The position numbers were made by a program, and so were the translations under genes. A DNA stretch of 64,000 nt, taken from NCBI RefSeq assembly GCF_024502345.1, contig NZ_JALDNN010000001.1, one strand, 5' to 3'. Below the pieces are notes generated by a model. The model did no database searches. It worked only from the letters and a program-made list of their open reading frames with translations, and had not been told where the DNA came from. Positions 22,171 to 59,703 of this stretch are shown here, piece by piece. Every line of letters begins with the position of its first letter. The first letter of the stretch is position 1. This DNA comes from Escherichia coli. GTDB taxonomy: Bacteria; Pseudomonadota; Gammaproteobacteria; Enterobacterales; Enterobacteriaceae.

Positions 22171-22204
22171 CAGATACTGCTGTAAAAACGCATGAAATGT
22201 GCCG

Positions 22205-23989: not shown

Positions 23990-24242
23990 TGAATATCCCG
24001 GTTTCTTTACCTCCCCTCCCACCCCGCACAGGACTGGCGAACGTGTGGGACAAATATGTGAGTCATAAACGCCTTATCTTCAGAAATGCAGTTGGCATCC
24101 GAACAGGACGATATTGTAACTTCACCTAATTACGAGGCATTGCAGTAGTTGAATTGTAGTTCTGTATTAGCCTGACAGTGACAGAATGCGATATTGACTC
24201 TGTCACAGGTGAAATAGTTTGAATGGTTAGCAGTTATGGCGA

Positions 24243-24449
24243 TCAGTCAACCACCAGGGAATAATCCTTCGAATTCTTATCGTGCTTCACCAACGCTGCC
24301 TCAATTGCCCTGAATGCTTCCAGAGACACTTGATGTTCTATACATGCAATTACAACATCCGGATAACTCATAGAAATGGTGCTAGTGAGCATAGTTTTTA
24401 CACGGACCTGATCCAAGGATGAGTCATCAGTGTATTGATCTTTATGCAT
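24243..24449 (-). CDS. Hypothetical prophage protein
   Basis: 68-aa ORF in the position of ydfO-like genes; no motif recognised. Confidence 0.3.
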
Positions 24450-24744
24450 TTTGTCGCTCCATGCGTTTGCTCTTCACTTGCGGCTAAAAATATAACGTCA
24501 AATCACTCAGCATGAAAGTGTGAAAGTTTCAGCGCGTTTCCCTTACATAATCTGTCGTTTGTATTCTCTCCAGGCATACCGGAAAGACTAGGTATTGTCA
24601 CACAACCAATACCACCGACTATCGAGATTTATATCTATTCGGTAATGTTTAAATATAAAAAAACCCCGTAAAAACGAGGTTTATGGGTAAATTGTATTGT
24701 TGAATAGCATCTGATAAGAAATTGATGCTAATACTATAAACACA

Positions 24745-24918
24745 CTAGATTAAATCAATCTTGATATCATAGCTTTCAAGACCAGTCATTTTTTCCCGTG
24801 CAGTAAACTGGATACTGGTAACTTCTTTCCCGGTCTTTTTCTTAAGCTCAATAATTTTTTTTGTTATATATTCAGAAATATCTGCTTCTGTTTTTGTTTT
24901 TAACTCTTCAATGTTCAT
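24745..24918 (-). CDS. gnsB: GnsA/GnsB-family protein
   Basis: MNIEELKTKTEADISEYITKKIIELKKKTGKEVTSIQFTAREKMTGLESYDIKI resembles GnsB. Confidence 0.75.
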   Translation of the reverse strand: MNIEELKTKTEADISEYITKKIIELKKKTGKEVTSIQFTAREKMTGLESYDIKIDLI

Positions 24919-25090
24919 CATTTCCTCTTTTAGTCTGTTATGACTTTCCTGGTACACAGTAGTGTCAATTATATGGAGCAAACGTATAAAAGATAAGATG
25001 AAACATCGCAATAATCAACATACGACAGTCTAAATTTCGCACAAACAGATAAAGATGATTATCCTTTATTATCAAGGCATTAGAATGAAA

Positions 25091-25360
25091 TCAATTCAAG
25101 AGTCTCATTGCTGCTTCCAGAATTTCTTCTGAAGTTACATGTCGATCCGCTGCTACATAAATGACTTTATGATCTCCGGTCAGAGATGGAAACCCTGCAG
25201 CCATTACAGTGAGATGTGTTGTTTCGCCATTTGGATATTCACGCATGATGGTGTTAACTCCGGTCATCACTGGCACTACCATTGCTGGTTCAGAGTTAAA
25301 AAAAACTATTATTTTTTTCATGATGTTACCGTAATATGTGAGTATCCATCGACTAGACAC
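25091..25360 (-). CDS. Hypothetical prophage protein (ynfN position)
   Basis: ORF between the gnsB-like and csp-like genes; identity uncertain. Confidence 0.35.
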   Translation of the reverse strand: MSSRWILTYYGNIMKKIIVFFNSEPAMVVPVMTGVNTIMREYPNGETTHLTVMAAGFPSLTGDHKVIYVAADRHVTSEEILEAAMRLLN

Positions 25361-25592
25361 TAAGCAAAAAAGCTCCCGAAGGAGCCTTCATTTTCACTTT
25401 CTTAAATCTAACGACAGACGGCTAACATTTAAGTATTGTGAAATATTATCAAATGTAATCATCATTGATTTACAAAAGATACATTTTGCCCCGAAAGGAT
25501 TCCTGTCAGAAACATCAAAAGATGATGTTCTATACTGAGAACCATGGCAACACGGGCATCTAAAGTGAATATGGTTTGTAATATTTTCTACC

Positions 25593-25805
25593 TCAAAGTG
25601 CCACTACATGAACAGCCGCGGGGCCTTTAGGTCCGTTCTCAATACCAAATTCGACTTGCTGATTCTCAGTTAACGTTTTGAAATCGTTGCTCTGAATAGC
25701 TGAGAAATGGACAAACACATCTTTGCTACCATCTTTCGGCGTGATGAAACCAAAACCTTTTTCAGGGTTAAACCATTTCACTAAACCAGTCATTTTGTTA
25801 GACAT
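25593..25805 (-). CDS. cspI: Cold-shock protein (CspA family), prophage copy
   Basis: [38 protein letters not shown]... RNP1/RNP2 motifs; the paralog name is a guess from Qin gene order. Confidence 0.8.
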
Positions 25806-26174
25806 CATTATTACCTTTTGAAGAAGTGAGCCCTTGGGCAGAATGGTCCGAAAAAAAATATCAGAGAGAAAAACCAACAAGGAAATCTCAAGAGGTACAA
25901 ATAATAAAATTATAACAATGACTGCTTCAGATAATTTTGTAACAAACCAGAACACCATTAACGCATGATTAACCAACCATAGCAAGGATTACTTTTGTAA
26001 AGAAAAACACACGAATGAAACAATAGCTTTATTTATTAATAAAACGTGTCATTCTGTCTAATGACCTTTTATCTTACCCTTAAGATTTCAAGGATTTTGA
26101 CTCATGGAAGAGTCCTTTTTATTTAAATTTCACATTCAGCGCTAAAAATAATCCGATTTAATGTTAATCTACAT

Positions 26175-27196
<1,022 letters not shown>

Positions 27197-27301
27197 GGAT
27201 ATTTATCAGGATTTATCGGTTTCTGAACCCTGGATATGTTTATCTGTCCCGGCCTGTTGAATCAGGCGGGGAAAAGGTAAAGACAATCAAGAGGATTATT
27301 T

Positions 27302-27574
27302 ATGGACAATAACACCATTTCTCTACAGGAGTTGCTCGACTGCATTTCAAAGCTTCGGGATGATGTAAATGCCCTCACTGTTGCATTTTCATATTTGGCC
27401 TTATCAATTCCCAGAGAACAAATGCAACCAACACTGGCATCGCTCCTGCTTGAATCACGCAACCCCAAATGGTCCCAGGAACAACAAAATTCTTTCAAGT
27501 GGCTGGCGGCATTACTGGAAGAAAAATATGCTGGTAAAATTACCATTTCGGTGGAGTCTTCAGAGAATCAGTAA
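27302..27574 (+). CDS. Hypothetical 90-aa protein on the strand opposite to the lysis cassette
   Basis: ORF fills the gap between endolysin and ydfR-like gene; hydrophilic, helical-looking; no homolog recalled. Confidence 0.25.
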   Translation: MDNNTISLQELLDCISKLRDDVNALTVAFSYLALSIPREQMQPTLASLLLESRNPKWSQEQQNSFKWLAALLEEKYAGKITISVESSENQ

Positions 27575-27884
27575 TTCTTCCTGGTAGCTTTCCTTTGTAG
27601 GTTATCCACACATTCTGCGCCTCTAAAATTACGGGGCGCTTTTCCGGCGACTGCTCATCCCCTTCACATAACCCGGCTGCAACTTCCAGGAAGACCTGTC
27701 TGATGCTCCTTCTGGCTGCTGCCTCATAAAACTCCAGCGCGGCACCTTCAACACGGTCCAGCGAGATGTCCAGGTCAAAAATTTCACCGTCAAAGCGTTT
27801 TTTGTCCCTTAATGCTACAGTTACCGCAACTTTATTCTCAAAATTGCGGATCCCTTTCACAATCAGTTCATAGTTTTGTGTCAT
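27540..27884 (-). CDS. YdfR-like prophage protein (DUF1327)
   Basis: Sits between holin and endolysin as ydfR does in Qin. Confidence 0.6.
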   Translation of the reverse strand: MTQNYELIVKGIRNFENKVAVTVALRDKKRFDGEIFDLDISLDRVEGAALEFYEAAARRSIRQVFLEVAAGLCEGDEQSPEKRPVILEAQNVWITYKGKLPGRITDSLKTPPKW

Positions 27885-27888
27885 TGAA

Positions 27889-28104
27889 TTACTCTCCCCG
27901 TGCAACCTTACGCTTGTCTTCTTTAATCTTGAAATAAAGGTTTGTCAGGTACGTCAGCAAGCCAAATACCAGACTACCCAGCACACCGATTGCAGCCCAC
28001 TGTGACGGAGTTACTTTATCGAGTAACTGCAATGCCCAGAAACCAGCATTACCAGCCGATGTGCCATAGGCGATACCTGTTGTTAACTTATCCATTGATT
28101 TCAT
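27889..28104 (-). CDS. Holin (phage 21 S / EssQ-like)
   Basis: 71 aa with TM segments WALQLL...[15 protein letters not shown] and a charged C-terminus. Confidence 0.8.
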
Positions 28105-28322
28105 ATCCTCACCCCGATGTACACAGATGGTGCAATATGTTTGAAAAGATCGGAGTCTATGGGGTAGTTTTTATAGCAAACGTTGTTCTCAACGGCGCTA
28201 AAAAACAGACACATTAAAAATGTGGGTAATTATTTTAAAAGAAAATCATATATTAAATAATAATACGAGATATGTTTTCATATTTAGTGTACTGTATACG
28301 GCCATTTATACAGGAAAAGCCT

Positions 28323-28493
28323 ATGTCAGAACGTAAAGACTCAAAATCACGCCGTAATTATCTCGTTAAATGTTCCTGCCCAAACTGCACCCAAGAGTCA
28401 GAACACAGTTTTTCAAGAGTACAAAAAGGTGCCCTTTTGATCTGCCCTCATTGCAACAAAGTATTCCAGACAAATCTTAAAGCTGTAGCTTGA
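28323..28493 (+). CDS. Small zinc-ribbon protein (CxxC...CxxC)
   Basis: MSERKDSKSRRNYLVKCSCPNCTQESEHSFSRVQKGALLICPHCNKVF; AGGAAA RBS. Confidence 0.4.
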   Translation: MSERKDSKSRRNYLVKCSCPNCTQESEHSFSRVQKGALLICPHCNKVFQTNLKAVA

Positions 28494-28552
28494 TTGATTT
28501 TATTCGTAACAAGTATTTTTTATATTTTAATAACATATTTAAAGCAGATAAT

Positions 28553-28577
28553 AAAAAACCCGCCTGAGCGGGTTTAA
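28553..28577. terminator. Hairpin ACCCGC-CTGA-GCGGGT with flanking A/T runs
   Basis: Perfect 6-bp stem with T-run on the minus strand. Confidence 0.5.
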
Positions 28578-28856
28578 TATTGTGGTACTTTTTGTGGGAG
28601 TCATCCACTTACGCACTTTGTTTTGCTATGCCAGCAGTTAGCTTCTGCTGTAAAACTATTCATGCAGCAAACCTGCACTTCACCACAATGGTTAGCATAC
28701 TTTTCCTGATTAAGTTATTGCCAAATATGCTGGCCATTGTTTCATGTATTGGACCTCCTTACTCTTTATTAAAGAGATCCAATATTCACCACTCTGTCTG
28801 TATCTCCACTCAGGCATCAGCCTTCTTCGTTATCGTATACAGACAAACTATGAATT

Positions 28857-29072
28857 TTAATCAGTAATTATGACATTTGCTGCTGCAGGACCTTTAGCAC
28901 CACTCTCTACAGAGAAGGTAACCTTTTGACCTTCAAATAAGATTCGATAATTATCATTCTGAATCGCAGAAAAATGCACAAACACATCTTTACTACCATC
29001 AACAGGAGAAATAAAGCCAAAACCTTTATCAGCGTTAAACCATTTTACTAAACCAGTCATTTTATTTGACAT
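28857..29072 (-). CDS. cspB: Cold-shock protein (CspB-like)
   Basis: [38 protein letters not shown]... Confidence 0.85.
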
Positions 29073-29372
29073 TCTACATTCCTTAACTTGAGCCTTTCGG
29101 CATAAATGGCTTGTATAACAGAAACGACTTCGTACTTAATTGGAGAGACTCAAAGAAGGAATAAGTGAATAACACCTGAAATGAGAACTGCTTTAGTAAA
29201 CTACTTCGTATATCGTCTGTTCTTCAAACCGACGCAATCATTAACGCATAGTTGAACATATGAAGCAATGTTTATTTTAGACATCCAGCCATCTTCAACC
29301 CCATCAAAAAACTATAGCTTTCTTCAGGAACGTGTGTATAGTGCGCCAAGTTATCAGTATTAAGGAATTTTT

Positions 29373-29585
29373 TTGTCCCGTAAAATGACAGGAATTCTCA
29401 AAACCTTTGACGGCAAAAGCGGCAAAGGTCTTATAACCCCATCCGATGGTCGTATCGATGTCCAGCTTCATGTTTCAGCGCTCAATCTCCGCGATGCAGA
29501 AGAAATTACCACCGGATTACGCGTGGAATTTTGCCGGATAAATGGTCTGCGTGGACCATCAGCTGCCAATGTTTACCTTTCATGA
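29373..29585 (+). CDS. cspF: Cold-shock-like protein (CspF/CspH-like)
   Basis: [39 protein letters not shown]... Confidence 0.8.
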
Positions 29586-29880
29586 GCTATATTAAAGCTT
29601 TAACTTCAAGCCCCATCGAATCAAACATGGAGAGTTTTCATGAATAAACCCGTCTGTCTTGATGACTGGTTGATTGGCTTTAAAAGCTTATGCTGTACTT
29701 TGACCTTAATAGCTCTGCTAATAATGTAATAAGCAGACTCATTGTATCTATGGACATTGTACTGGAAGAAAACATTTTAAACATCAGGCAAAAAACAAAG
29801 TCACCCGATAAATAATAAGTAAACTAACATGAATCCCGTAATGAGATTCAACATCTCTATTACCCTATTTAAAGCACAAA

Positions 29881-29905
29881 AACCCGCTCATCAGCGGGTT
29901 TTCTA
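29881..29905. terminator. Candidate late-operon terminator (tR'-like) downstream of Q
   Basis: CCCGCT-CATC-AGCGGG stem with T-runs on both strands, ~110 bp past the Q stop. Confidence 0.5.
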
Positions 29906-30007
29906 CTTTTTCTTAACTTCGGGTATACAAAGCCCATCGTTGAAAAAATTTTATCCATATTTTTTGAAAAATGCAAGCATCACGTCGCCATCTTCGGCGA
30001 AAATCAC

Positions 30008-30760
30008 TTATCTCGTCACCTTTCTCAATTGTGCTTCAGCGTAAGATTCCTCCTGCCAGCACTTTGTAACCAGTTTATCAATGACATTTGCATATCCTTT
30101 ATACCACTGATAATCACTCAGGTCCGGTACCAGCTTCTGGACATGATGCCGCGCCAGTGTGGTTGGTAAACGACTAAACCGTTTTCCATTGCAACGCCCA
30201 CAAATCTTATAAACAGGTGTGCCATGAAGCCGGGTCCTTTTTTCATCCAAGACAATACCTTTACCCTTACACCCTCTGCACGCTGTGCTGACTTCTCCCT
30301 TACCATGGCAATGCTGACATAGTTCCTTCACCCACTCTTCTTTGATAACAGATTCCCCGCTTCTGGAGTGTTTCACCACTTCGCGCAATACATTATGAAA
30401 TCCAGTACCAGCACAATGCTCACAACGAGCCTTACTTGCCGCAGACCTGGAATAATCAGCAAAGGCAAAATTCACAAGGTAAGGAATAATCTGTAGCCGG
30501 GTTTCTTCACTCAATTTATTCAATGTCGGGTTATCCAGTGCCATCGCGTAATTGAGCAGACCTTCAATCGCAAACTGAGGATCCTGAACACCAACTTTTG
30601 CCAGGAATAAGGCAAACCCAAGCGGTGCTTTCGACTGCACCATCCCCTGCGCAGCCATCACATCCGTAATCGTTAAACCACCAGAGCCTGTCGCCGGTGC
30701 GTCATCACTCAATTTTGGAGATTTTGGGGAGTAATATTTTGGTAAGGCTTCAAGGTTCAT
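30008..30760 (-). CDS. Late-gene antiterminator Q (QuuQ/phage 82 Q-like)
   Basis: 250 aa with Cys clusters CEHCAGTG, CQHCHGKG, CRGCKGKG, CGRCNG. Confidence 0.8.
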   Translation of the reverse strand: MNLEALPKYYSPKSPKLSDDAPATGSGGLTITDVMAAQGMVQSKAPLGFALFLAKVGVQDPQFAIEGLLNYAMALDNPTLNKLSEETRLQIIPYLVNFAFADYSRSAASKARCEHCAGTGFHNVLREVVKHSRSGESVIKEEWVKELCQHCHGKGEVSTACRGCKGKGIVLDEKRTRLHGTPVYKICGRCNGKRFSRLPTTLARHHVQKLVPDLSDYQWYKGYANVIDKLVTKCWQEESYAEAQLRKVTR

Positions 30761-30820
30761 GCTCGTTCTCCACTTACGCCAGTACGCCTATTGCCAGCGC
30801 ACGATCGATAAAACGAAATA

Positions 30821-31171
30821 TCAGCTCCAGCTGGGAGCCATACTTCTCTTCAAATGCCACGGTAAACGCTGGTTAATATCGGCATTGTCCACATCCTCGA
30901 CGTCAGGAAGAGACACAAAGACGCCATTTGCAGACTGCGCCACAGCGTCAGCAATGAAGTGAGTGCCACCAGCACGTTGTAAAATCATTGCCCATCCCAG
31001 CGGGAAAATCTGATCGCCATCGGCACGAAGGCGGTTAAATAATGCGTTCTCTGTTACATCCAGCCACTCAGCAGCTTCAGCGTACCCCACCGGCAACGCC
31101 GCGATAGTTTTTCTGACAGCTTTCACGTACCACTCAGGCTGTTTTTCCACTTTCCAGTGATGATTACCCAC
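30821..31171 (-). CDS. Phage regulatory protein, CII-like; possibly truncated
   Basis: 116-aa ORF overlapping the Cro-like gene stop and ending 60 bp before Q; no replication genes in between. Confidence 0.4.
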   Translation of the reverse strand: MGNHHWKVEKQPEWYVKAVRKTIAALPVGYAEAAEWLDVTENALFNRLRADGDQIFPLGWAMILQRAGGTHFIADAVAQSANGVFVSLPDVEDVDNADINQRLPWHLKRSMAPSWS

Positions 31172-31424
31172 GGCTTACCTCCTGTTCCTGTGGTTTAAAC
31201 CCATTCTGGTTTTGGCTAGATTGAAAACGTGCCGGATAAAGAATCTGCATTTCGCTGATTTCACCCTTAAAAAAATTGGCCAGACGTTCTGCAAGATCGA
31301 TAGATGGAATTTGTTCCAGTCTTTCAATACGACTCAGCGTCGCTGGATTGACCTGAACGCCAGCAGCAACATGCTGCAAAGTAAATCCGTGCGCCTTACG
31401 CACATTCCGTAATGGTGATTGCAT
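31164..31424 (-). CDS. Cro/antirepressor-like HTH protein
   Basis: HTH GFTLQHVAAGVQVNPATLSRIE; divergent from the cI-like repressor. Confidence 0.6.
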   Translation of the reverse strand: MQSPLRNVRKAHGFTLQHVAAGVQVNPATLSRIERLEQIPSIDLAERLANFFKGEISEMQILYPARFQSSQNQNGFKPQEQEVSRG

Positions 31425-31521
31425 ATGACCTCCACATATTGCGTGATGAGCATATTATTTCACGCAAATATTTTGCGCAAGTTGATTTGCTTAACGCGCA
31501 ATAAAGAAATGTAATAAACGC

Positions 31522-32214
31522 ATGAACATAGGAAACCGAGTCAGACAACTTCGCCAAGCGAAGAACATGAAAATCGCCGATCTCGCTGAAGCAATAGGAG
31601 TGGATGCGGCGAATATCTCACGCCTGGAAACAGGTAAGCAGAAACAATTCACTGAACAAGCCCTGAGTAATATTGCCAGGAGCTTAGGTGTTGATATTGC
31701 TGATCTCTTTACCTCAGACTTCAAAAGTAATACTGTATGTAAAAACAGTGTTAGTGAGGATGTTGCGCAGGTGAAGGATGTATTCCGTATTGAAATGCTG
31801 GATGTCAGTGCCAGTGCGGGAAATGGCCTTATCCAGGGCGGTGATGTCATTGATGTGATTCATGCCATTGAATACAGAACTGATAATGCTGTATCGATGT
31901 TTGGCGGACGGCCAGCCAATCACATTAAAGTTATCAACGTTCGTGGGGACAGTATGTGTCCAACCATTGAGCCAGGAGATCTCATCTTCGTTGATGTCAG
32001 TATCAATCAGTTTGATGGAGATGGTATCTATGTATTTGGTTTTGATGATAAAATTTATGTCAAACGACTGCAAATGATACCTGACAAACTACTGGTGATT
32101 TCTGATAACCAGATTTACCGTGAATGGGGAATTACCAGCGAAAATGAACACCGGTTTATGGTCTTTGGAAAGGTCTTAATCAGCCAGTCACAAACCCTTA
32201 AGCGACACAATTAA
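31522..32214 (+). CDS. CI-like repressor (HTH plus S24 LexA-type peptidase domain)
   Basis: N-terminal HTH IADLAEAIGVDAANISRLE; C-terminal GDSMCPTIEPGDLIFVD...VKRL Ser/Lys dyad. Confidence 0.85.
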   Translation: MNIGNRVRQLRQAKNMKIADLAEAIGVDAANISRLETGKQKQFTEQALSNIARSLGVDIADLFTSDFKSNTVCKNSVSEDVAQVKDVFRIEMLDVSASAGNGLIQGGDVIDVIHAIEYRTDNAVSMFGGRPANHIKVINVRGDSMCPTIEPGDLIFVDVSINQFDGDGIYVFGFDDKIYVKRLQMIPDKLLVISDNQIYREWGITSENEHRFMVFGKVLISQSQTLKRHN

Positions 32215-32234
32215 CCCTTACCTCCTCATCAATT

Positions 32235-32256
32235 AGCCACCCAAAGGTGGCTTTTC
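32235..32256 (+). terminator. Rho-independent terminator after cI
   Basis: AGCCACC-CAAA-GGTGGCT stem followed by TTTT. Confidence 0.65.
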
Positions 32257-32649
32257 ATTACCCTTTAAATTGCATATCTCGCAACAAAAACACTTGCATA
32301 ATGCGCAACTTCATTTTATCTTTCTTTCCAGACAAACAAACAAGGTACTAACAAAATTTGGTTGTAACACGGCGTATGGCACATGCGTCGTTAGCGGTCT
32401 GGGGACGTTAAAGGGGACAATCCACTCCTTGCTCGGGCAAACAAACCAGGTAGCCGGAATGTGCAAGTCAATGATGATGCTGATAAGACGCCTAACCAGC
32501 GTGGCGATTCGGTTTGACGCCTGGGAAGAGACCAGGGTGCAACGATGAGGGCATTTATGGAGCCGCGACAAAGTGTGGTGCCGTAACTGGCTAAGTGCTC
32601 TCAGCGTTGTGGTAATCCGCGAAATGGCGCGGCGGTAAGTATGGCGGGG

Positions 32650-33255
32650 TTACTCTTTCCCCGTTGAGGACACCGGATTGTCAGGTTGACCATACGCCTG
32701 AGTGACAACAACCAGACGATTCAGGGCAGTATCATCCGCCTTTTCCGGTAACAGCCCATGCAGGTATACAAGTCCATCCCAGCGGCTGTTTTTTGGAATT
32801 GGCAGCATCGGCGCTACATAGGCCTGAAAAGCCTGGCCTGTACGTTTAGCTGCCACATGAAAGAGACGGTCAAAGTTGGTAGTGACCAATCGAAGGGCAC
32901 CCTCGCGGCTACGGGCTAAACGTAACAGCGCCGCCTGAGTATCAATAGCGCCCCTACGACGGAACTTTGGCTTAAGGGCTTTTTCCAACGCGCGTCGGAC
33001 GGCTATACGCTGCCCTGGTAAGCGCCGTTCCAGCAAATCTAATGTGCCGTCAAATTGCCCACGCTCGAAAACCTCACGCTCAATTTCTGAAAGTGTTGTT
33101 CCGTTCCTCTGGTAAATTAGTTCTACCAACCCTTTGAAACCAGGTAAACCAGCAGGGTAGGAAATGCCTGCTCCACAGAAGAACACAACGCGCCCTTCCT
33201 CGTGCGCCTGCAAAAGCTCATCAGGAATATCAGGGCCGTTGGTAATGAATTGCAT
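32650..33255 (-). CDS. SIR2-like domain protein (short, 201 aa)
   Basis: VVFFCGAGISYPAGLPGFKGL (Rossmann GAG), VTTNFDRLF, LVYLHGLL match SIR2_2-type motifs as I recall them. Confidence 0.55.
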   Translation of the reverse strand: MQFITNGPDIPDELLQAHEEGRVVFFCGAGISYPAGLPGFKGLVELIYQRNGTTLSEIEREVFERGQFDGTLDLLERRLPGQRIAVRRALEKALKPKFRRRGAIDTQAALLRLARSREGALRLVTTNFDRLFHVAAKRTGQAFQAYVAPMLPIPKNSRWDGLVYLHGLLPEKADDTALNRLVVVTQAYGQPDNPVSSTGKE

Positions 33256-33437
33256 TCCTTTTCCTCCTATCCAATGTGCACGTTCATTCGAGTAAATGAA
33301 GGCAAGGGGTTACATCTTATTATACCGACCGTGCAAATCCGGCTTCCTAGCAAGCTACTTTACTTGCCAACTCATAATGTCCGAACTCCGAACAAAGCGG
33401 ACTGCTAGATTTGATTGCGTTCTAGCTACGCAAAATA

Positions 33438-34661
33438 TCATTTCGAGCCTAAACGAGTACAAGTAACAATCGATTCAACTCTCTCCCACCATGCCTGGTA
33501 GGCTTTACGCTGTTCTTCTAGATAATCACTCTTGTCATAAACTTGCCATACACCTGGCAGTTTATGACCGAGCATTATTTCAGCAATATGAGGCGCAGTA
33601 AGATCAGAAAAGTTTGTTCGTGCTGTTCGTCTCAAATCATGAAGAGACCAATGAGGAAATTGATACCCCAAACGCCGCCATGCGTACTGCATTAAATTGT
33701 AAGGCAGCGACTGCAATGATGTCCGACCAACTGGTTCCCTGCTTCCTTCCTTAGTAAAAAGCATATCGGAACCGTTGTTCATAGAGATAACGTATTTTAT
33801 AAGCTCTTCAACCGGTTCAATAATGGGCCGCTTTAGCGGTTCGCCTGTTATATCCCCTGTCTTATGTCGTTCTGGTGGTACAGTCCATATTTTATTAATG
33901 AAATCAAAATCGTCCACCTTGGCAGTAATTAGCTCTGAACTACGGCAACCAAAATGCAGCAATAGTTTAATGAAGGCCCGGTATTTAGGAACCATTCGAG
34001 AACCATCGATCGCAGCATAAAGGATTTTAATTTCATCATGTGTCAGAAACCGTTTCTTCTGACCTTTACGGATATCCATATCTTTACCCGTGATATCCGA
34101 CAGCGGGCGAGTTTCAATGAGCTTTCTCTTATACGCCCAGACATGGGCCTGCTTTGCGTTAATTAGCAATCGGTCTGCTATTGCTGGAGTCTTAGTGCTA
34201 AGAGGCTCCAGGACTTCTAACCAATCATGCAATGTAGCTGCATCGTGAGGGATATTCCCGATTTTAGAGAACAGGTGCAGCTCAAACGAGCGGAGTATCT
34301 GTTCAGAACCTTTTTTATTTTTTACACAATATGCTTCATACCAAGCACGGATCACAGATTCTACCGTCATGGCTTCAGTAGCTTTACGTTTTTCTGCCAG
34401 CTTGACCAATCGTGGATTGCGGTTTGACTCGAGTTCACCACGAAGACGGATAACTTCTTCTCTGGCCTCTTTTAGTCCAGTTGCCGGGTAAGTTCCGATA
34501 TCAAGACGCTCACCTTTCCCCGCCCACTGATAACGATATTGGAACACTACGCGACCTTTCGGTGATACTCTAACAGACAGACCATCACGATCGGATTTAA
34601 CCAAAACCTTATCACGTTCCTTTCCAAGGACTGAACGCAACCACGCATCAGACAGCGCCAT
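33438..34661 (-). CDS. int: Tyrosine integrase, P4-type
   Basis: 407 aa; N-terminal DUF4102-like arm-binding region (MALSDAWLRSVLGK...GLSVRVSPKGRVVFQYRYQ), C-terminal catalytic region with HDLRRT...LGHK. Confidence 0.9.
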   Translation of the reverse strand: MALSDAWLRSVLGKERDKVLVKSDRDGLSVRVSPKGRVVFQYRYQWAGKGERLDIGTYPATGLKEAREEVIRLRGELESNRNPRLVKLAEKRKATEAMTVESVIRAWYEAYCVKNKKGSEQILRSFELHLFSKIGNIPHDAATLHDWLEVLEPLSTKTPAIADRLLINAKQAHVWAYKRKLIETRPLSDITGKDMDIRKGQKKRFLTHDEIKILYAAIDGSRMVPKYRAFIKLLLHFGCRSSELITAKVDDFDFINKIWTVPPERHKTGDITGEPLKRPIIEPVEELIKYVISMNNGSDMLFTKEGSREPVGRTSLQSLPYNLMQYAWRRLGYQFPHWSLHDLRRTARTNFSDLTAPHIAEIMLGHKLPGVWQVYDKSDYLEEQRKAYQAWWERVESIVTCTRLGSK

Positions 34662-34669
34662 TACTCACC

Positions 34670-34729
34670 TTGTACAAATAACAAAAAACCTCTGCTGTTT
34701 TGTACATTATGTACAAGCACATGTACAGA
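34670..34729. promoter_or_regulatory. Cluster of four (A/T)TGTACA(A/G) repeats beside int, candidate arm-type sites
   Basis: TTGTACAAA, TTGTACATT, ATGTACAAG, ATGTACAGA within 60 bp of the int start. Confidence 0.45.
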
Positions 34730-34884
34730 TTTTTGATGAAAGTAACCTGATCAATTTAAAGTTACATGAAAGAATTTTCAATCAAAGAAATCACATAACA
34801 TCATGTTATTAAATGAGTTATATAATTATCACTCAATTAATCGAAAGGATTTTGAAAGAGTAAAAGAGCTTTTATTTGGGCTTA

Positions 34885-34956
34885 ATTATTGGGGTGAGAA
34901 ATAATGGCAAAAGTGCGGCGCTTCGCCACCTCTTGCAAATAAGGAGACAACGTCAT
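34885..34956 (-). pseudogene. prfC: Displaced ancestral 5' end of prfC ([22 protein letters not shown] then stop)
   Basis: Reverse complement encodes the remembered K-12 RF3 N-terminus for 22 codons, then runs into island sequence and stops. Confidence 0.8.
34892..34905. repeat. attR core: second copy of GGGTGAGAAATAAT
   Basis: Identical to 18098..18111. Confidence 0.7.
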
Positions 34957-38706: not shown

Positions 38707-39495
38707 ATGGCCTATCGTTCCGCACCGCTCTATGAAGATGTCATCTGGCGAACACATCTCCAGCCGCAGGATGCTGGGCTTGCACAAGCCGTACGGGCGA
38801 TGATCGCCAAACATCGTGAACATTTGCTCGAGTTTATCCGCCTGGATGAACCCGCTCCGCTTAACGCCATGACGCTGGCGCAATGGTCATCACCGAATGC
38901 GCTAAGTTCTCTACTGGCGGTCTATTCCGATCATATCTATCGCAACCAACCAACGATGATCCGCGAGAACAAACCGCTGATCTCACTATGGGCACAATGG
39001 TATATCGGCCTGATGGTGCCACCATTAATGCTGGCGCTACTGACGCAGGAAAAGGCATTAGATGTGTCGCCGGAACATTTCCATGCTGAGTTTCACGAAA
39101 CCGGACGCGTCGCCTGTTTCTGGGTCGATGTGTGTGAAGATAAAAACGCAACACCACATTCGCCGCAGCATCGAATGGAAACGTTAATCAGCCAGGCGCT
39201 GGTTCCGGTTGTGCAAGCACTAGAAGCGACCGGAGAGATCAACGGCAAACTTATCTGGAGTAATACCGGTTATTTGATCAACTGGTATCTCACTGAGATG
39301 AAGCAACTGCTCGGCGAGGCTACTGTTGAATCGCTGCGTCATGCCCTCTTTTTTGAGAAAACGCTCACGAACGGTGAAGATAATCCACTCTGGCGTACCG
39401 TGGTGCTACGCGACGGCCTGCTGGTGCGCCGCACTTGCTGCCAGCGTTATCGCTTACCGGATGTGCAGCAATGTGGCGATTGTACGCTGAAATGA
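38707..39495 (+). CDS. fhuF: Ferric-siderophore reductase FhuF (2Fe-2S)
   Basis: 262 aa; C-terminal CCQRYRLPDVQQCGDC cluster. Confidence 0.9.
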   Translation: MAYRSAPLYEDVIWRTHLQPQDAGLAQAVRAMIAKHREHLLEFIRLDEPAPLNAMTLAQWSSPNALSSLLAVYSDHIYRNQPTMIRENKPLISLWAQWYIGLMVPPLMLALLTQEKALDVSPEHFHAEFHETGRVACFWVDVCEDKNATPHSPQHRMETLISQALVPVVQALEATGEINGKLIWSNTGYLINWYLTEMKQLLGEATVESLRHALFFEKTLTNGEDNPLWRTVVLRDGLLVRRTCCQRYRLPDVQQCGDCTLK

Positions 39496-39532: not shown

Positions 39533-40210
39533 TTAATAGGGATGCAACACATTACTTGTTTCGCAATGCCGCATACATAACAGAATATCTGCGGCCTCCA
39601 ACAACCCTGCGTCAGAACTGACGCCCAGTTTCGACATCACATTAAATTTATGTGCACGGATCGTTTTGATATTGCGTTTAAGCTGCTCGGCAATTTGTGT
39701 CATTGAGTAGCCACGCGACATAAAGCGCAATATTTCTCTCTCCGTCGGGCTTAACGTCCGGCTTTGGTTAATGTACCACTGATTGTTCAGTCGGTCGGTC
39801 GCCTGACGTACACCATTTAATGACAAAAAGAGTTCCTGATGAAAAATCTCCAGCGTTGACGCTTTACTTAATACACCGTCCAGCGGTGATGGCGACAATG
39901 AACCAATCAGCCGAGCTTCAATATCATCATCCGCAATAACTAAACGCCGGGTACGCGGAAACTTAATCGCCAGTTCAGTCAGGCAAGATAATCCCTCTCT
40001 GCGCTCACTTCTCATGGCAGAAAAAGAAAAAATGACCGCCGCAAACGAGATCCGCGACATGGCATCCTGAAATGACTCCTGACTGGTATAGGTATGGAGC
40101 TTATAAGGGTTGCCCGCAAACTTTCTGAATAAACTCTCAATACCGATACTACTCATGACGCATTTTTCTATGAGTGCGACATTTCTCTTCTTAATTCGGC
40201 AGTGTTCCAT
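39533..40210 (-). CDS. bglJ: LuxR/FixJ-family transcriptional regulator BglJ
   Basis: 225 aa; C-terminal LuxR HTH ([25 protein letters not shown]...). Confidence 0.88.
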
Positions 40211-40371
40211 TCTGCGGCATCTCCATAAACAGAAGGCAAGTTAAGTTCTCTTGCACCCTGCGCGCTATTTATCCATGCATACATTTCAGCGTTGCTGTGA
40301 ATTGCCAGTCGACGCATCGCACTGTTTTTTTGGGCGCTGATAGTTTTATTACTTTTCTTAAGCAATGAAGC

Positions 40372-41592
40372 TGTAGATTCAATTGGTCAACGCAACAGTT
40401 ATGTGAAAACATGGGGTTGCGGAGGTTTTTTGAATGAGACGAACATTTACAGCAGAGGAAAAAGCCTCTGTTTTTGAACTATGGAAGAACGGAACAGGCT
40501 TCAGTGAAATAGCGAATATCCTGGGTTCAAAACCCGGAACGATCTTCACTATGTTAAGGGATACTGGCGGCATAAAACCCCATGAGCGTAAGCGGGCTGT
40601 AGCTCACCTGACACTGTCTGAGCGCGAGGAGATACGAGCTGGTTTGTCAGCCAAAATGAGCATTCGTGCGATAGCTACTGCGCTGAATCGCAGTCCTTCG
40701 ACGATCTCACGTGAAGTTCAGCGTAATCGGGGCAGACGCTATTACAAAGCTGTTGATGCTAATAACCGAGCCAACAGAATGGCGAAAAGGCCAAAACCGT
40801 GCTTACTGGATCAAAATTTACCATTGCGAAAGCTTGTTCTGGAAAAGCTGGAGATGAAATGGTCTCCAGAGCAAATATCAGGATGGTTAAGGCGAACAAA
40901 ACCACGTCAAAAAACGCTGCGAATATCACCTGAGACAATTTATAAAACGCTGTACTTTCGTAGCCGTGAAGCGCTACACCACCTGAATATACAGCATCTG
41001 CGACGGTCGCATAGCCTTCGCCATGGCAGGCGTCATACCCGCAAAGGCGAAAGAGGTACGATTAACATAGTGAACGGAACACCAATTCACGAACGTTCCC
41101 GAAATATCGATAACAGACGCTCTCTGGGGCATTGGGAGGGCGATTTAGTCTCAGGTACAAAAAACTCTCATATAGCCACACTTGTAGACCGAAAATCACG
41201 TTATACGATCATCCTTAGACTCAGGGGCAAAGATTCTGTCTCAGTAAATCAGGCTCTTACCGACAAATTCCTGAGTTTACCGTCAGAACTCAGAAAATCA
41301 CTGACATGGGACAGAGGAATGGAACTGGCCAGACATCTAGAATTTACTGTCAGCACCGGCGTTAAAGTTTACTTCTGCGATCCTCAGAGTCCTTGGCAGC
41401 GGGGAACAAATGAGAACACAAATGGGCTAATTCGGCAGTACTTTCCTAAAAAGACATGTCTTGCCCAATATACTCAACATGAACTAGATCTGGTTGCTGC
41501 TCAGCTAAACAACAGACCGAGAAAGACACTGAAGTTCAAAACACCGAAAGAGATAATTGAAAGGGGTGTTGCATTGACAGATTGAATCTACA
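40372..41592 (+). mobile_element. IS30 insertion sequence (1221 bp)
   Basis: Terminal inverted repeats TGTAGATTCAATTGGTCAACGCAACAG / ...GTTGCATTGACAGATTGAATCTACA; candidate 2-bp target duplication GC. Confidence 0.9.
40434..41585 (+). CDS. insI: IS30 transposase
   Basis: 383 aa [31 protein letters not shown]...; length and sequence match IS30 Tnp. Confidence 0.92.
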
Positions 41593-42736
41593 GCTATCTG
41601 GTTGATGCCCCATCCTTTACCTAGTAGCCGCAGTACCTTGCGCTCTGAAAGAGTGAGAATGACGGAGCGATAGCTAAAATCATGAGTTTCAGTCATTGCC
41701 GGGGAGGTCAGCATGGTGCTGATACGCTCTGCGTGCGTATTGCCGGAACGTACGGTCTTGACCAGATTCTCAATGGGTTCAACATCAGACAATAACGTCG
41801 CCGTAGGGCACATGAGTAATTCTACTGCCTGGGAATACCAGGAGCGTGACACCATGAAAACCCAGTGAATTTCCCGATATTGTGAGATTAAAGAATAATA
41901 ATGTTCACAAACAGAACGTGGATCTTCACTTTCACCGGCTAAATCAGCAATGACTAATCCGGAACGACGTAATTGTAATAAGGTAAGGTTCTCCGCAGAG
42001 GCGCTGGATATTATTTCATATTCAGGGAAGTGAGTCCTCATGACCTCTTTTAACCCTGCTTGCATAACAGGTATTTTACTGATAACAATTCCATTTTTGC
42101 AGCATCCTGGCAACATATTTCCTCCACATCCACTGTCTAAAAATTATGATGGTTTATTCAGGATATTCATTCCTTAAATGTTTCCAGCAAATTAATAGAT
42201 TAAGCGAATAAATTATCCTTAGCATTCACTTTCATATCAGCATACTCCTGCTGCACAACAACTCCACTGCATGTGTCAGAAGGTTAGCATCAAATGATAA
42301 CCTGGTGAAATAGCCTGGAGACATTTAAAATATCTACATTAAGTTGTTAGGGATACTTAATGAAAAACAGAAATCACATTCATTTAATTTATAATTAAAT
42401 GATATCCCTTCCCGCAGAATGCGGGAATCACACAATCAATATTTATTCAATAAAATCTGATGATTTTAACTTGTTAACACTAAAAAACGCGCCCAGCTAT
42501 CTATTATCCTGACCCGTAAAGGCTAAAACAATAAATTCATTATAGTGATAATATTCATGTGATAGTTTGTTTGCGGCGAGAGATAATTCGCTTTTTATCA
42601 CCGAGCTTGTCCCGATAACCAGGATTAATCAGCGCAATTTTGATCTTAACCTACCGCAAAACAACCGTGCTTCATGATACAAATGGATTCTCATTATCTG
42701 AACAATACGCAGCACGTCTATGACAAAGGGCGAGTT

Positions 42737-43507
42737 ATGCAAACTGAGCAACAGCGAGCCGTAACACGGCTTTGTATCCAGTGTGGATTATTTCTTTTGC
42801 AACATGGTGCGGAAAGCGCGTTGGTTGATGAGCTTTCCTCACGACTGGGTCGGGCGCTGGGAATGGACAGTGTCGAAAGTTCTATCTCTTCGAACGCCAT
42901 AGTGCTGACAACTATTAAAGATGGGCAATGCCTGACATCGACACGTAAAAATCACGATCGCGGCATTAATATGCATGTGGTGACTGAAGTCCAGCACATT
43001 GTGATTCTTGCGGAGCATCATCTGCTGGATTACAAAGGCGTAGAGAAACGATTTAGCCAAATTCAGCCATTACGTTACCCAAGATGGCTGGTAGCCTTAA
43101 TGGTTGGCCTTTCTTGCGCCTGTTTCTGTAAACTCAGTAACGGTGGCTGGGATGGTGCCGTCATCACCTTCTTTGCCAGTACGACCGCGATGTATATCCG
43201 CCAGCTGCTGGCACAACGTCATCTTCATCCACAGATCAACTTTTGCCTTACCGCTTTCGCCGCCACCACCATTTCCGGATTGCTTTTGCAACTCCCCACT
43301 TTCAGCAATACCCCCACCATTGCGATGGCCGCCAGCGTTCTGCTGCTGGTGCCGGGCTTTCCGTTGATTAATGCCGTCGCCGATATGTTTAAAGGCCACA
43401 TCAATACCGGACTGGCACGCTGGGCGATCGCCAGTCTGCTGACACTGGCTACCTGCGTCGGCGTAGTGATGGCACTGACGATTTGGGGTCTACGCGGATG
43501 GGTGTGA
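42737..43507 (+). CDS. yjjP: Inner-membrane protein YjjP (ThrE-family exporter subunit)
   Basis: 256 aa from [24 protein letters not shown]... Confidence 0.85.
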
Positions 43508-53947: not shown

Positions 53948-54065
53948 GGTTTCTCTTTCCTGTGGACCGATGCAAGATTTTCGGCCTGGAAAGCAAAAAC
54001 TTTATGAAAAGGTGTAACCCGCCATCCATGGAAAAACCAGGCGCTGGTTATCAGATACTAAAAAG

Positions 54066-54512
54066 TTATTCATTATCGCCCGGGATGTCTTCTTGTCGGG
54101 AATTGCCCAGAGCAATAAATTCCTCTAACAGATGGGTTAACTGTTGCATTTTCTCGGCAGTAAACTGAGCTTCAATCTGCCGATAGGCTTCTTCAATCTG
54201 TGTCTGAGCGCGGTTATACAGCGCCTGCCCCTCTTTGGTCAGCGAGATATAGAGCTTCCGCTGATCATTGATCGGCTTTAATCGCAACACTAAACCGTCG
54301 CGTTCCATCCGCGTGAGGATCCCGGTCAGGCTTGGGCGCAAAATGCAGGCGCGATACGCCAGATCGTGAAAATCCATTGATGGGCTTTCCGCCAGAATAC
54401 GCACGATGCGCCACTGTTGCTCAGTCAAATTATGCCGTTTAACGATTGGGCGAAAATAACTCATCGCCGCTTCTCGCGCCTGGAGCAACGCAATGGTTAG
54501 TGAGTCGTGCAT
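54066..54512 (-). CDS. hpaR: MarR-family repressor of homoprotocatechuate degradation
   Basis: MHDSLTIALLQAREAAMSYFRPIVKRHNLTEQQWRIVRIL... MarR HTH; divergent from hpaG. Confidence 0.8.
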   Translation of the reverse strand: MHDSLTIALLQAREAAMSYFRPIVKRHNLTEQQWRIVRILAESPSMDFHDLAYRACILRPSLTGILTRMERDGLVLRLKPINDQRKLYISLTKEGQALYNRAQTQIEEAYRQIEAQFTAEKMQQLTHLLEEFIALGNSRQEDIPGDNE

Positions 54513-54783
54513 TATCTTTCCCCTGAAAAATTCAAAATCATTAATATAGAAACAATTAATCATCACGTTACCGGGACTGCGCTGCCCCTGCAATTCCTGA
54601 TTTTATCAAAATTGATGATATTTTATTAACTTACTGATATTTAATATTTTATTATCTTTATATGTAAATAGTTTGTTAATTAGATCACATTTATATCACT
54701 TACTTTTGCCAAACTACGCAATCGGGAATAAAAGTAATCATTAACATATTAATGATTAAGATGATCGAATCCGAGGAGTGGTA

Positions 54784-56073
54784 ATGAAAGGCACTATCTT
54801 CGCCGTAGCGTTGAACCATCGCAGCCAACTTGATGCCTGGCAGGAAGCGTTCCAGCAATCTCCCTACAAAGCCCCGCCTAAAACTGCGGTCTGGTTTATT
54901 AAACCGCGCAATACGGTGATTGGTTGCGGTGAACCGATTCCCTTTCCACAGGGTGAAAAGGTACTGAGCGGTGCGACAGTTGCGCTGATTGTGGGAAAAA
55001 CGGCGACGAAAGTACGTGAAGAAGATGCGGCAGAGTACATCGCCGGATATGCGCTGGCTAACGACGTCAGCCTGCCGGAAGAGAGCTTTTACCGCCCGGC
55101 AATCAAAGCAAAATGTCGTGATGGATTCTGCCCCATTGGCGAAACCGTGGCTCTCAGCAATGTCGATAATCTGACTATCTATACCGAGATCAACGGGCGT
55201 CCTGCCGATCACTGGAATACCGCCGATTTACAACGTAACGCCGCACAGCTGCTGAGCGCCCTGAGCGAATTCGCCACGCTGAACCCAGGCGACGCCATTT
55301 TGCTTGGCACACCACAAACCCGCGTGGACATTCAACCCGGCGATCGCGTTCGTGTTCTCGCAGAAGGTTTCCCGCCGCTGGAAAATCCGGTAGTGGACGA
55401 ACGTGAAGTGACCACGCGTAAAACCTTCCCAACGCAGCCACACCCGCACGGCACGCTGTTTGCCCTCGGCCTGAACTACGCCGACCACGCCAGTGAACTG
55501 GAATTTAAGCCACCGGAAGAGCCGTTGGTGTTTCTGAAAGCGCCGAATACCCTCACGGGCGATAACCAGACCTCCGTGCGCCCGAACAACATCGAGTACA
55601 TGCACTACGAAGCGGAGCTGGTGGTAGTTATTGGCAAGCAGGCTCGTAACGTCAGCGAAGCCGATGCCATGGATTATGTCGCGGGCTACACCGTGTGTAA
55701 CGACTACGCCATTCGCGACTATCTGGAAAACTACTACCGCCCTAACCTGCGGGTCAAAAGCCGCGACGGACTGACGCCGATGCTTTCAACCATCGTGCCG
55801 AAAGAGGCGATCCCGGACCCGCATAATCTGACCCTTCGCACCTTCGTCAACGGCGAGTTACGCCAGCAAGGCACCACCGCCGATCTGATCTTCAGCGTGC
55901 CCTTCCTGATCGCCTACTTAAGCGAATTTATGACCCTGAATCCGGGCGACATGATCGCCACCGGCACACCAAAAGGCTTATCTGACGTGGTGCCTGGCGA
56001 TGAAGTAGTGGTGGAAGTAGAAGGCGTGGGCCGCCTGGTGAACCGAATTGTGAGTGAGGAAACAGCGAAATGA
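54784..56073 (+). CDS. hpaG: Bifunctional OPET decarboxylase / HHDD isomerase (FAH family)
   Basis: ~429 aa, two tandem FAH-like halves. Confidence 0.85.
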   Translation: MKGTIFAVALNHRSQLDAWQEAFQQSPYKAPPKTAVWFIKPRNTVIGCGEPIPFPQGEKVLSGATVALIVGKTATKVREEDAAEYIAGYALANDVSLPEESFYRPAIKAKCRDGFCPIGETVALSNVDNLTIYTEINGRPADHWNTADLQRNAAQLLSALSEFATLNPGDAILLGTPQTRVDIQPGDRVRVLAEGFPPLENPVVDEREVTTRKTFPTQPHPHGTLFALGLNYADHASELEFKPPEEPLVFLKAPNTLTGDNQTSVRPNNIEYMHYEAELVVVIGKQARNVSEADAMDYVAGYTVCNDYAIRDYLENYYRPNLRVKSRDGLTPMLSTIVPKEAIPDPHNLTLRTFVNGELRQQGTTADLIFSVPFLIAYLSEFMTLNPGDMIATGTPKGLSDVVPGDEVVVEVEGVGRLVNRIVSEETAK

Positions 56074-57536
56074 AAAAAGTAAATCATTGGATCAACGGCA
56101 AAAATGTTGCAGGTAACGACTACTTCCAGACCACCAATCCGGCAACCGGTGAAGTGCTGGCGGATGTGGCCTCTGGCGGTGAAGCGGAGATCAATCAGGC
56201 GGTAGCGGCAGCGAAAGAGGCGTTCCCGAAATGGGCCAATCTGCCGATGAAAGAGCGTGCGCGCCTGATGCGCCGTCTGGGCGATCTGATCGACCAGAAC
56301 GTGCCTGAGATCGCCGCGATGGAAACCGCGGACACGGGCCTGCCGATCCATCAGACCAAAAACATGTTGATCCCACGCGCTTCTCACAACTTTGAATTTT
56401 TCGCGGAAGTCTGCCAGCAGATGAACGGCAAGACCTATCCGGTTGACGACAAGATGCTCAACTACACGCTGGTGCAGCCGGTAGGCGTTTGTGCACTGGT
56501 GTCGCCGTGGAACGTGCCGTTTATGACCGCCACATGGAAGGTCGCGCCGTGTCTTGCGCTGGGCAATACCGCGGTGCTGAAGATGTCGGAACTCTCCCCG
56601 CTGACCGCTGACCGCCTGGGTGAGCTGGCGCTGGAAGCCGGTATTCCGGCGGGCGTGCTGAACGTGGTACAGGGCTACGGCGCAACCGCAGGGGATGCGC
56701 TGGTTCGTCATCATGACGTACGTGCCGTGTCGTTCACCGGCGGTACGGCCACCGGGCGCAACATCATGAAAAACGCCGGGCTGAAAAAATACTCCATGGA
56801 ACTGGGCGGTAAATCGCCGGTGCTGATTTTTGAAGATGCCGATATTGAACGCGCGCTGGACGCTGCCCTGTTCACCATCTTCTCAATCAACGGCGAACGC
56901 TGCACCGCCGGTTCGCGCATTTTTATTCAACAGAGCATCTATCCAGAATTCGTTAAACGCTTTGCCGAACGCGCCAACCGTCTGCGCGTGGGCGATCCGA
57001 CCGATCCGAATACCCAGGTTGGGGCGCTTATCAGCCAGCAGCACTGGGAAAAAGTCTCCGGCTATATCCGTCTCGGCATTGAAGAAGGCGCCACCCTGCT
57101 GGCGGGCGGCCCGGATAAACCGTCTGACCTGCCTGCACACCTGAAAGGCGGCAACTTCCTGCGCCCAACGGTGCTGGCGGACGTAGATAACCGTATGCGC
57201 GTTGCCCAGGAAGAGATTTTCGGGCCGGTCGCCTGCCTGCTGCCGTTTAAAGATGAAGCCGAAGGCTTACGCCTGGCAAACGACGTGGAGTACGGCCTCG
57301 CGTCGTACATCTGGACGCAGGATGTCAGCAAAGTGTTACGCCTGGCGCGTGGCATTGAAGCAGGCATGGTGTTCGTCAACACCCAGAACGTGCGTGACCT
57401 GCGCCAGCCATTTGGCGGCGTAAAAGCCTCCGGCACCGGGCGTGAAGGCGGTGAGTACAGCTTCGAAGTGTTCGCGGAAATGAAGAACGTCTGCATTTCC
57501 ATGGGCGACCATCCAATTCCGAAATGGGGAGTCTGA
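56070..57536 (+). CDS. hpaE: 5-carboxymethyl-2-hydroxymuconate semialdehyde dehydrogenase
   Basis: 488 aa aldehyde dehydrogenase with catalytic Cys (GERCTAGSR). Confidence 0.88.
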   Translation: MKKVNHWINGKNVAGNDYFQTTNPATGEVLADVASGGEAEINQAVAAAKEAFPKWANLPMKERARLMRRLGDLIDQNVPEIAAMETADTGLPIHQTKNMLIPRASHNFEFFAEVCQQMNGKTYPVDDKMLNYTLVQPVGVCALVSPWNVPFMTATWKVAPCLALGNTAVLKMSELSPLTADRLGELALEAGIPAGVLNVVQGYGATAGDALVRHHDVRAVSFTGGTATGRNIMKNAGLKKYSMELGGKSPVLIFEDADIERALDAALFTIFSINGERCTAGSRIFIQQSIYPEFVKRFAERANRLRVGDPTDPNTQVGALISQQHWEKVSGYIRLGIEEGATLLAGGPDKPSDLPAHLKGGNFLRPTVLADVDNRMRVAQEEIFGPVACLLPFKDEAEGLRLANDVEYGLASYIWTQDVSKVLRLARGIEAGMVFVNTQNVRDLRQPFGGVKASGTGREGGEYSFEVFAEMKNVCISMGDHPIPKWGV

Positions 57537-57537
57537 T

Positions 57538-58389: not shown

Positions 58390-58398
58390 GGACGTTTT

Positions 58399-58779: not shown

Positions 58780-58789
58780 CGCGCAGATT

Positions 58790-58875: not shown

Positions 58876-58889
58876 CACAGGATATCGCT

Positions 58890-59693: not shown

Positions 59694-59703
59694 GGAGAGA
59701 ACG

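Follow-up and report, generated by a model that had tools for sequence, protein, structure and literature searches.

The stretch of DNA analyzed here, 64,000 nucleotides in length and referred to below as the window, is a piece of the Escherichia coli chromosome that shares the K-12 gene order between nadR and tsr but runs in the opposite direction, and both the bgl operon and rcsB lie outside it. The gene order fhuF - bglJ - yjjQ - AT-rich spacer - yjjP - yjjB - dnaT corresponds to the yjjQ-bglJ operon locus of E. coli. The fhuF gene occupies 38707-39495 on the plus strand and is followed on the minus strand by an intact bglJ (39533..40210), which encodes a 225-aa protein with a GerE helix-turn-helix (HTH) domain (1.2e-12) and differs from K-12 BglJ by a single amino acid. 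Beyond yjjQ, the composition profile exhibits an AT-rich intergenic regulatory region of 33-35% GC (42117..42673), which harbors the native yjjQ-bglJ promoter and is bordered by the divergent neighbor yjjP, a ThrE-family exporter gene on the plus strand (42674..43507). For bglJ alone no promoter is known, and its transcription normally starts, together with that of yjjQ, at the promoter upstream of yjjQ. Within this operon, yjjQ is split by an IS30 element, and the distance from the native promoter region to bglJ is now 1.9 kb, as against 0.7 kb without IS30. The bglJ ATG lies 161 nt past the left end of the element, and a Shine-Dalgarno-like GGAG is located 10 nt upstream of the ATG.

The element was recognized in the preliminary description as a complete IS30 of 1221 bp with an intact transposase and terminal inverted repeats, which is borne out in every part. 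It extends over 40372..41592 on the plus strand and is nearly identical to the K-12 IS30 copies, from which it differs by 1 nt (IS30C and IS30D) or 2 nt (IS30A). Its first letters read TGTAGATTCAATTGGTCAACGCAACA, with an inverted copy at the other end, and the left (IRL, 40372..40397) and right (IRR, 41567..41592) inverted repeats, both given on the plus strand, form 26-bp imperfect inverted repeats that match at 23 of 26 positions. The IRL adjoins the yjjQ 3' fragment and is the bglJ-side end, confirming that the left end of IS30 faces bglJ, whereas the IRR adjoins the yjjQ 5' fragment. A search of the whole window detected no further copy of the IS30 ends. The transposase gene, located at 40434..41585 on the plus strand from the list of open reading frames and from Pfam, is intact and encodes 383 aa with an N-terminal HTH_38 domain (1.6e-23) and a C-terminal rve/DDE domain (4.1e-14); it is directed away from bglJ and is convergent with yjjQ, and the index of the public collection lists the exact protein in 46003 blocks. 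Both ends of the element are flanked by a target-site duplication, GC, present at 40370..40371 on the left and 41593..41594 on the right. The length, the inverted repeats, the transposase domains and the 2-bp duplication all fit a canonical IS30. The K-12 copies IS30A, IS30C and IS30D (insI) share the same 1221 bp, 26-bp repeats, 383-aa HTH and DDE transposase and 2-bp duplication at 1-2 nt of divergence, but are located in IS911/IS600 remnants and in ydbA, whereas the copy in the window is located in yjjQ, so that location is the sole difference.

Removal of IS30 and one GC in silico restored a yjjQ open reading frame of 726 nt encoding 241 aa, with 2 aa different from K-12 YjjQ, and the empty site of K-12, which reads ...AATGAAGCTATCTGG..., has flanks that exactly match those of IS30 in the window. 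The insertion point lies after the second base of codon 175 of the 241 codons. An interruption of yjjQ about 50 codons before its stop had been described previously; the interruption itself is confirmed, while the count is 66 codons and the break falls within the GerE/LuxR HTH, which covers residues 153-206 of the restored YjjQ (6.6e-08). The 5' fragment contains native codons 1-175 (41593..42116, minus strand), and its reading frame continues to 41505, adding 28 residues encoded by the element and giving a 203-aa chimera in which no Pfam domain match was found. The 3' fragment (40168..40371, minus strand) contains codons 176-241 and the stop, including the remainder of the LuxR HTH, and it overlaps bglJ by 43 bp, the same overlap as in the RefSeq annotations; the earlier observation that bglJ begins 43 bp within the old 3' end of yjjQ thus agrees with both the reading frames and these annotations. 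The range 40168-42116 given for the insertion in the preliminary description represents the full extent of the split yjjQ. At the equivalent loci of two RefSeq genomes, the 5' piece is annotated as a pseudogene lacking the C-terminus and the 3' piece as a pseudogene lacking the N-terminus. As judged from its sequence, yjjQ is a null allele here because IS30 landed inside the LuxR-type helix-turn-helix, and the truncated YjjQ, which would keep only its first 175 residues followed by 28 junk residues, is predicted to be unable to bind DNA.

The distribution of the allele was surveyed with 300-bp junction-spanning queries against 5426 complete E. coli genomes. Only two of them share both junctions, left and right, with the window, at the same dinucleotide and in the same orientation, namely JNE132847 from a human in Japan and 'isolate 12' from a food-transport container in Hungary, and yjjQ was uninterrupted in 5396 of the 5426. 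The 203-aa chimeric reading frame was also observed on two ENA metagenome contigs, one of which is labelled human gut, and the gut-metagenome contig is 100% identical to the window over 2231 bp across the right junction, including 123 bp of the right end of IS30. Two scans of the JGI metagenomes with junction patterns allowing either IS30 orientation gave no match. IS copies often cause misassembly, and a repeat copy of IS30 could in principle have been misplaced into yjjQ; the perfect 2-bp duplication with the exactly restored yjjQ frame, the identical junctions in two closed genomes and the independent metagenome contig with its 2231 bp at 100% identity, 123 bp of IS30 included, make such an artefact extremely improbable.

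Different flank haplotypes were observed for the three carriers. Their flanks differ by 1.5-3% and their IS30 copies by 0-1 nt, and the carriers therefore do not represent one lineage. The flank differences between the window and the other two carriers start only 6 bp and 32 bp from IS30, and those between JNE132847 and isolate 12 start 135 bp and 100 bp from it. The possibility that the three carriers inherited the allele from one ancestor or exchanged it by recombination was considered and rejected on these differences close to the element and on the contrast between flanks that are 1.5-3% apart and IS copies that are 0-1 nt apart. Many uninterrupted genomes match the IS-free reconstruction of the JNE132847 locus at 100% identity, and for that of isolate 12 the best uninterrupted genome reaches 99.6%. 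The closest of the 5426 complete genomes to the window reaches 99.3% over 4.4 kb. A Logan assembly with the exact BglJ variant and an intact yjjQ was considered as the parent haplotype and discarded, its DNA being 1.3-1.6% diverged. The simplest reading is that three recent and independent IS30 insertions would have taken place at the same dinucleotide and in the same orientation. Such recurrence implies either a preferred target that IS30 struck independently each time or the action of selection.

The IS30 element is known for strong site specificity, inserting both next to its own ends and into hot spots that are nearly palindromic (PMC9333248). To evaluate the yjjQ site, IS30 flanks were pooled from the K-12 copies, from other species and from ten sequence contexts in which the exact transposase is encoded; an IRL scan of genome contigs contributed 12 loci. 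The collected sites show the expected pattern of arms rich in A around a G/C core, as in ATATTAAAAAAGGCTAC. The position weight matrix (PWM) was built from eight clean independent sites with a 2-bp duplication and is small and crude, since many flanks have been rearranged by recombination between IS30 copies, leaving only these eight. In this small eight-site model, the yjjQ site scores -1.9 and ranks 875 of 62741 window positions (top 1.4%), against a window background of -21.7 +/- 9.0 and training sites that score between 9 and 31. The experimentally defined lambda LHS hot spot scores 2.1, which is close to the yjjQ site. Like the IS30 hot spots in lambda LHS and in the orfA site of IS911, the yjjQ site has AT-rich arms and is rehit at one exact dinucleotide, whereas the strongest IS30 sites carry a G/C-rich core (AAAAAGGCnn|nnGCCTTTTT) that the yjjQ site largely lacks. 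The repeated independent insertion at one dinucleotide is found on three flank haplotypes, and all three insertions share one orientation, which has a chance probability of 0.25 and is not significant. As an IS30 target, the yjjQ site is thus plausible without being canonical, and its status as a preferred one derives mainly from recurrence: other lineages have received the insertion independently at this very position, which would therefore be a preferred IS30 target.

The recurrence could also reflect an allele interrupted at codon 175 that is favored in the gut, which IS30 would have entered at least three times and whose benefit could lie in the loss of the YjjQ repressor and/or in a low level of IS30 read-out into bglJ or towards yjjP. 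The three independent events on different haplotypes in one orientation are compatible with this, as are the two ENA metagenome contigs with the window's allele, one of them labelled human gut, and the rank of the yjjQ site in the crude PWM, which at the top 1.4% of the window is not outstanding. Moreover, IS insertions in the yjjP/yjjQ intergenic region were parallel and beneficial in E. coli evolving in the mouse gut, where they arise repeatedly under selection during colonization by K-12 (PMC4674774, PMC5094792). However, these experimentally selected insertions are intergenic, involve IS1, IS2, IS5 and IS186 and are linked to yjjP expression, and the allele occurs in only 2 of 5426 genomes, in 5396 of which yjjQ is intact. 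The site specificity of IS30 can by itself account for repeated hits (PMC9333248), the lambda LHS site receives a PWM score similar to that of the yjjQ site, and three of three insertions in one orientation would arise by chance with a probability of 0.25. Selection for the interrupted allele is accordingly regarded as unlikely, although, if true, it would extend the experimental selection at yjjP/yjjQ to natural populations. The preferred reading is an ordinary IS30 transposition that probably yields a yjjQ null allele polar on bglJ, at a site that is probably a preferred IS30 target hit in several lineages.

In K-12, yjjQ and bglJ constitute a single operon that is repressed by H-NS and activated by LeuO (PMC3950696, PMC5025477, PMC2646131), in agreement with the H-NS-silenced operon given in the preliminary description (PMC5025477). 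BglJ together with RcsB lifts the silencing that H-NS exerts on bgl and also activates other genes, among them leuO and molR (PMC3950696, PMC5025477, PMC2646131). Very small amounts of BglJ suffice for target activation, and after LeuO activation of yjjQ-bglJ the level of BglJ is still too low for it (PMC5025477). In the bglJC allele, a miniTn10 insertion upstream of bglJ renders bglJ constitutive and relieves bgl silencing (PMC3950696, PMC2646131). It had been suggested that insertions in this region can activate bglJ and thereby bgl, and that IS30 might either provide a new promoter or block read-through. The former suggestion holds for miniTn10 in bglJC, but for IS30 no promoter facing bglJ was seen. 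The new-promoter option finds no support in the consensus scans or in the orientation of the IRR, and blocked read-through is the better-supported of the two options, as a prediction.

The scans in question are simple consensus matching, which real promoters can escape, and in the minus-strand interval 41600-40211 they identified no sigma-70-like site with at least 9 of 12 consensus matches. A laxer scan of the minus strand returned three weak matches at 8 of 12, all deep inside IS30 and none at the junction. Read outward on the minus strand, the IRL contains TTGACC at 40390-40385, which matches 5 of 6 positions of a -35 element. A hybrid promoter at this end was rejected, as the hexamers located 16-18 nt beyond TTGACC are TCATTG, CATTGC and ATTGCT and offer no usable -10 (CATTGC at 17 nt). 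The outward -35 of IS30, the maker of fusion promoters, sits in the IRR (PMC9330008). In the window, this TTGACA (41574-41579) points into the yjjQ 5' fragment, towards yjjP and away from bglJ, and a hybrid promoter at the IRR was likewise rejected, the hexamer 17 nt past TTGACA being TCTGGT. Inside the element, the transposase promoter is directed rightward, away from bglJ, whereas the antisense promoter is directed towards bglJ; the latter lies in the middle of the element (bases 730-760) and, as reported, does not measurably affect the DNA next to it (PMC9330008).

These features bear on whether IS30 might activate bglJ in the manner of bglJC, through read-out from the antisense promoter, a weak hybrid promoter at the IRL or relief of H-NS silencing, giving constitutive BglJ-RcsB and a Bgl+ phenotype. 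There is precedent in the activation of bglJ by a transposon in yjjQ (PMC3950696, PMC2646131), the end of IS30 lies just 161 nt from an intact bglJ with its GGAG, the IRL carries the outward TTGACC at 5 of 6 of a -35, the central antisense promoter faces bglJ (PMC9330008) and a low level of BglJ is enough for its targets (PMC5025477). On the other hand, no acceptable -10 is found at 16-18 nt from the TTGACC of the IRL, the consensus scans exhibit no promoter-like site facing bglJ at or near the junction, and the antisense promoter is reportedly without measurable effect on adjacent DNA, with the outward -35 at the opposite end (PMC9330008). Activation of bglJ by IS30 is thus considered quite unlikely, and it is most likely that bglJ would be severed from its native promoter and not switched on.

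The sequence of events in the preferred reading, loss of yjjQ by ordinary transposition with probable polarity on bglJ, can be proposed as follows. IS30 would have entered yjjQ by its usual mechanism, leaving the 2-bp duplication, and would separate bglJ from the H-NS-silenced and LeuO-activated promoter upstream of yjjQ. Translation of yjjQ would end 88 nt into IS30. A transcript from the native promoter would contain 1294 untranslated nt, mostly antisense IS30, ahead of the bglJ ATG, and because of this untranslated stretch and of the lack of a visible promoter facing bglJ, the yjjQ null allele is expected to be polar on bglJ. Long untranslated RNA is a classic substrate of Rho. No intrinsic terminator was predicted in the minus-strand stretch 41600-40211, and therefore the polarity, if any, would be of the Rho type, with Rho-dependent termination of the untranslated RNA; the minus-strand RNA of 40424-40504 is C-rich and G-poor (C/G up to 2.4), as a site of Rho loading could be. 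If yjjQ and bglJ are translationally coupled through their 43-bp overlap, this coupling would presumably be lost as well, and bglJ would become less inducible than in the wild type.

Some features of the locus point against polarity. The GGAG is retained upstream of the intact bglJ, so any read-out would be translated. Little BglJ suffices (PMC5025477), and the antisense promoter of IS30 aims at bglJ. In addition, the insertion adds 1.2 kb to the distance between bglJ and the AT-rich silencing region, and cryptic promoters could thereby be less strongly repressed by H-NS.

Comparison with known insertions in the same circuit places the allele in context. In the K-12 miniTn10 alleles bglJC and bglJ4, as in the window, the element lies in yjjQ upstream of an intact bglJ within the H-NS-silenced operon (PMC3950696). 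However, miniTn10 drives constitutive bglJ in bglJC, while the IS30 of the window has no visible promoter facing bglJ and carries its outward -35 at the far end; without such a promoter, activation of the bglJC type is therefore not expected. The yjjP/yjjQ insertions from the mouse gut (Barroso-Batista 2015; Lourenco 2016) affect the same locus, where the H-NS-controlled divergent promoter region is changed by IS elements; those insertions hit the regulatory region without damaging yjjQ and are tied to yjjP expression, whereas the IS30 of the window lies about 520 bp into the coding part of yjjQ. The activation of cryptic bgl by IS1 and IS5 likewise involves an IS in an AT-rich, H-NS-silenced locus of the same circuit (PMC2646131, PMC9678765), but there the elements are inserted upstream of the promoter and disrupt silencing, whereas IS30 separates the gene from its promoter, an arrangement that corresponds to a polar mutation.

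The allele is an ordinary IS insertion in which both the element and the operon are known; two RefSeq genomes already carry the interrupted yjjQ as an annotated pseudogene, and no mention of IS30 in yjjQ was found in a literature search. It leaves the knowledge of IS30 and of bgl regulation unchanged, with the recurrence at the same site and in the same orientation as a mildly notable point. For annotation, its value is that yjjQ is to be regarded as a pseudogene here and that bglJ is probably uncoupled from its promoter. Predictions drawn from the LeuO - YjjQ/BglJ - RcsB circuit, namely activation of bgl, leuO and molR and repression of flhDC by YjjQ, would therefore fail. Recurrence at the same site in unrelated lineages provides a small and clean natural example of IS30 site specificity and, if selection is involved, a link to the yjjP/yjjQ locus that is repeatedly mutated in gut adaptation. 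Other natural IS hits were also observed at this locus, with IS1 located upstream of yjjQ in UTME-12 and within bglJ in elppa6.

The insertion of IS30 at the yjjQ dinucleotide was also observed in two unrelated complete E. coli genomes, JNE132847 (L001, NZ_AP028094.1) and isolate 12 (L002, NZ_CM194533.1), where the element occupies 4151-5371 in each and is identical to the copy in the window in both target dinucleotide and orientation. The flanking haplotypes of the yjjQ IS30 differ, which argues for separate events at the same site and points to this dinucleotide as a preferred IS30 target, entered independently in the window, L001 and L002. Inspected by eye, the right flank of the window copy (TATCTGGTTGATGCC, 41595-41609) is similar to ATCTGTCAATGC, the inner segment of the right inverted repeat of IS30, where the transposase binds; since the element's own inverted repeats are among its known targets, this likeness might contribute to the choice of the yjjQ site. 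In other genomes, many IS30 copies lie at a palindrome-like site, ATATTAAAAAAGGCTAC|, in orfA of IS3-family elements of the IS911/IS600 type (flanks of loci L005, L004, L020, L022 and L027), and several copies display mismatched flanks without target duplication, indicating past inversions or deletions via recombination between IS30 copies.

Other insertion sequences were also observed in the yjjP-yjjQ-bglJ region. The bglJ gene is interrupted by IS1 (739-1506) in the blood isolate elppa6 (L032, NZ_CP083497.1), and in the pig isolate UTME-12 (L033, NZ_CP157095.1) IS1 lies at about 1527-2303 in the spacer separating yjjP from yjjQ, with intact yjjQ-bglJ downstream of it, the latter position being the one under selection in mouse-gut evolution experiments.

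Elsewhere in the window, a 16.7-kb insert without a K-12 counterpart (18139-34891) is located at the 5' end of prfC, is bordered by an imperfect 42-bp direct repeat (18097-18138 and 34892-34933) and is a defective lambdoid prophage. It encompasses a tyrosine integrase (33438-34661), a SIR2-like fragment (32650-33255), a cI-like repressor (31522-32214), a Q antiterminator (30008-30760), lysozyme and Rz (26175-27196), a truncated terminase (22086-22949), a macro-domain protein (21120-22022), a tail-fibre assembly protein (20536-21117) and a Hin/Pin-type invertase (19848-20438), together with Rfam matches to the IS009 sRNA (20570-20768) and to two cspA thermoregulators (25566-25963 and 28794-29233).

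Compared with K-12, the window lacks yjjJ, encoding a HipA-family toxin, between deoD and lplA, and about 290 bp (5697-5983) stand in place of a 1.33-kb K-12 segment. The two Rfam matches to the REP-derived naRNA4 (24-102 and 13137-13215) and a short block present three times at 13110-13297, which corresponds to the K-12 yjjV-yjjW spacer, are ordinary REP/BIME elements. Collinearity with K-12, in which tsr is followed by btsT-mrr-hsd, is lost at 54009-64000, and this segment harbors a 4-hydroxyphenylacetate-type catabolic cluster, corresponding to hpa in E. coli B/C/W, with genes for an FAA hydrolase/isomerase, an aldehyde dehydrogenase, a LigB-type dioxygenase, an HpcH/HpaI aldolase, an MFS transporter and an AraC regulator.
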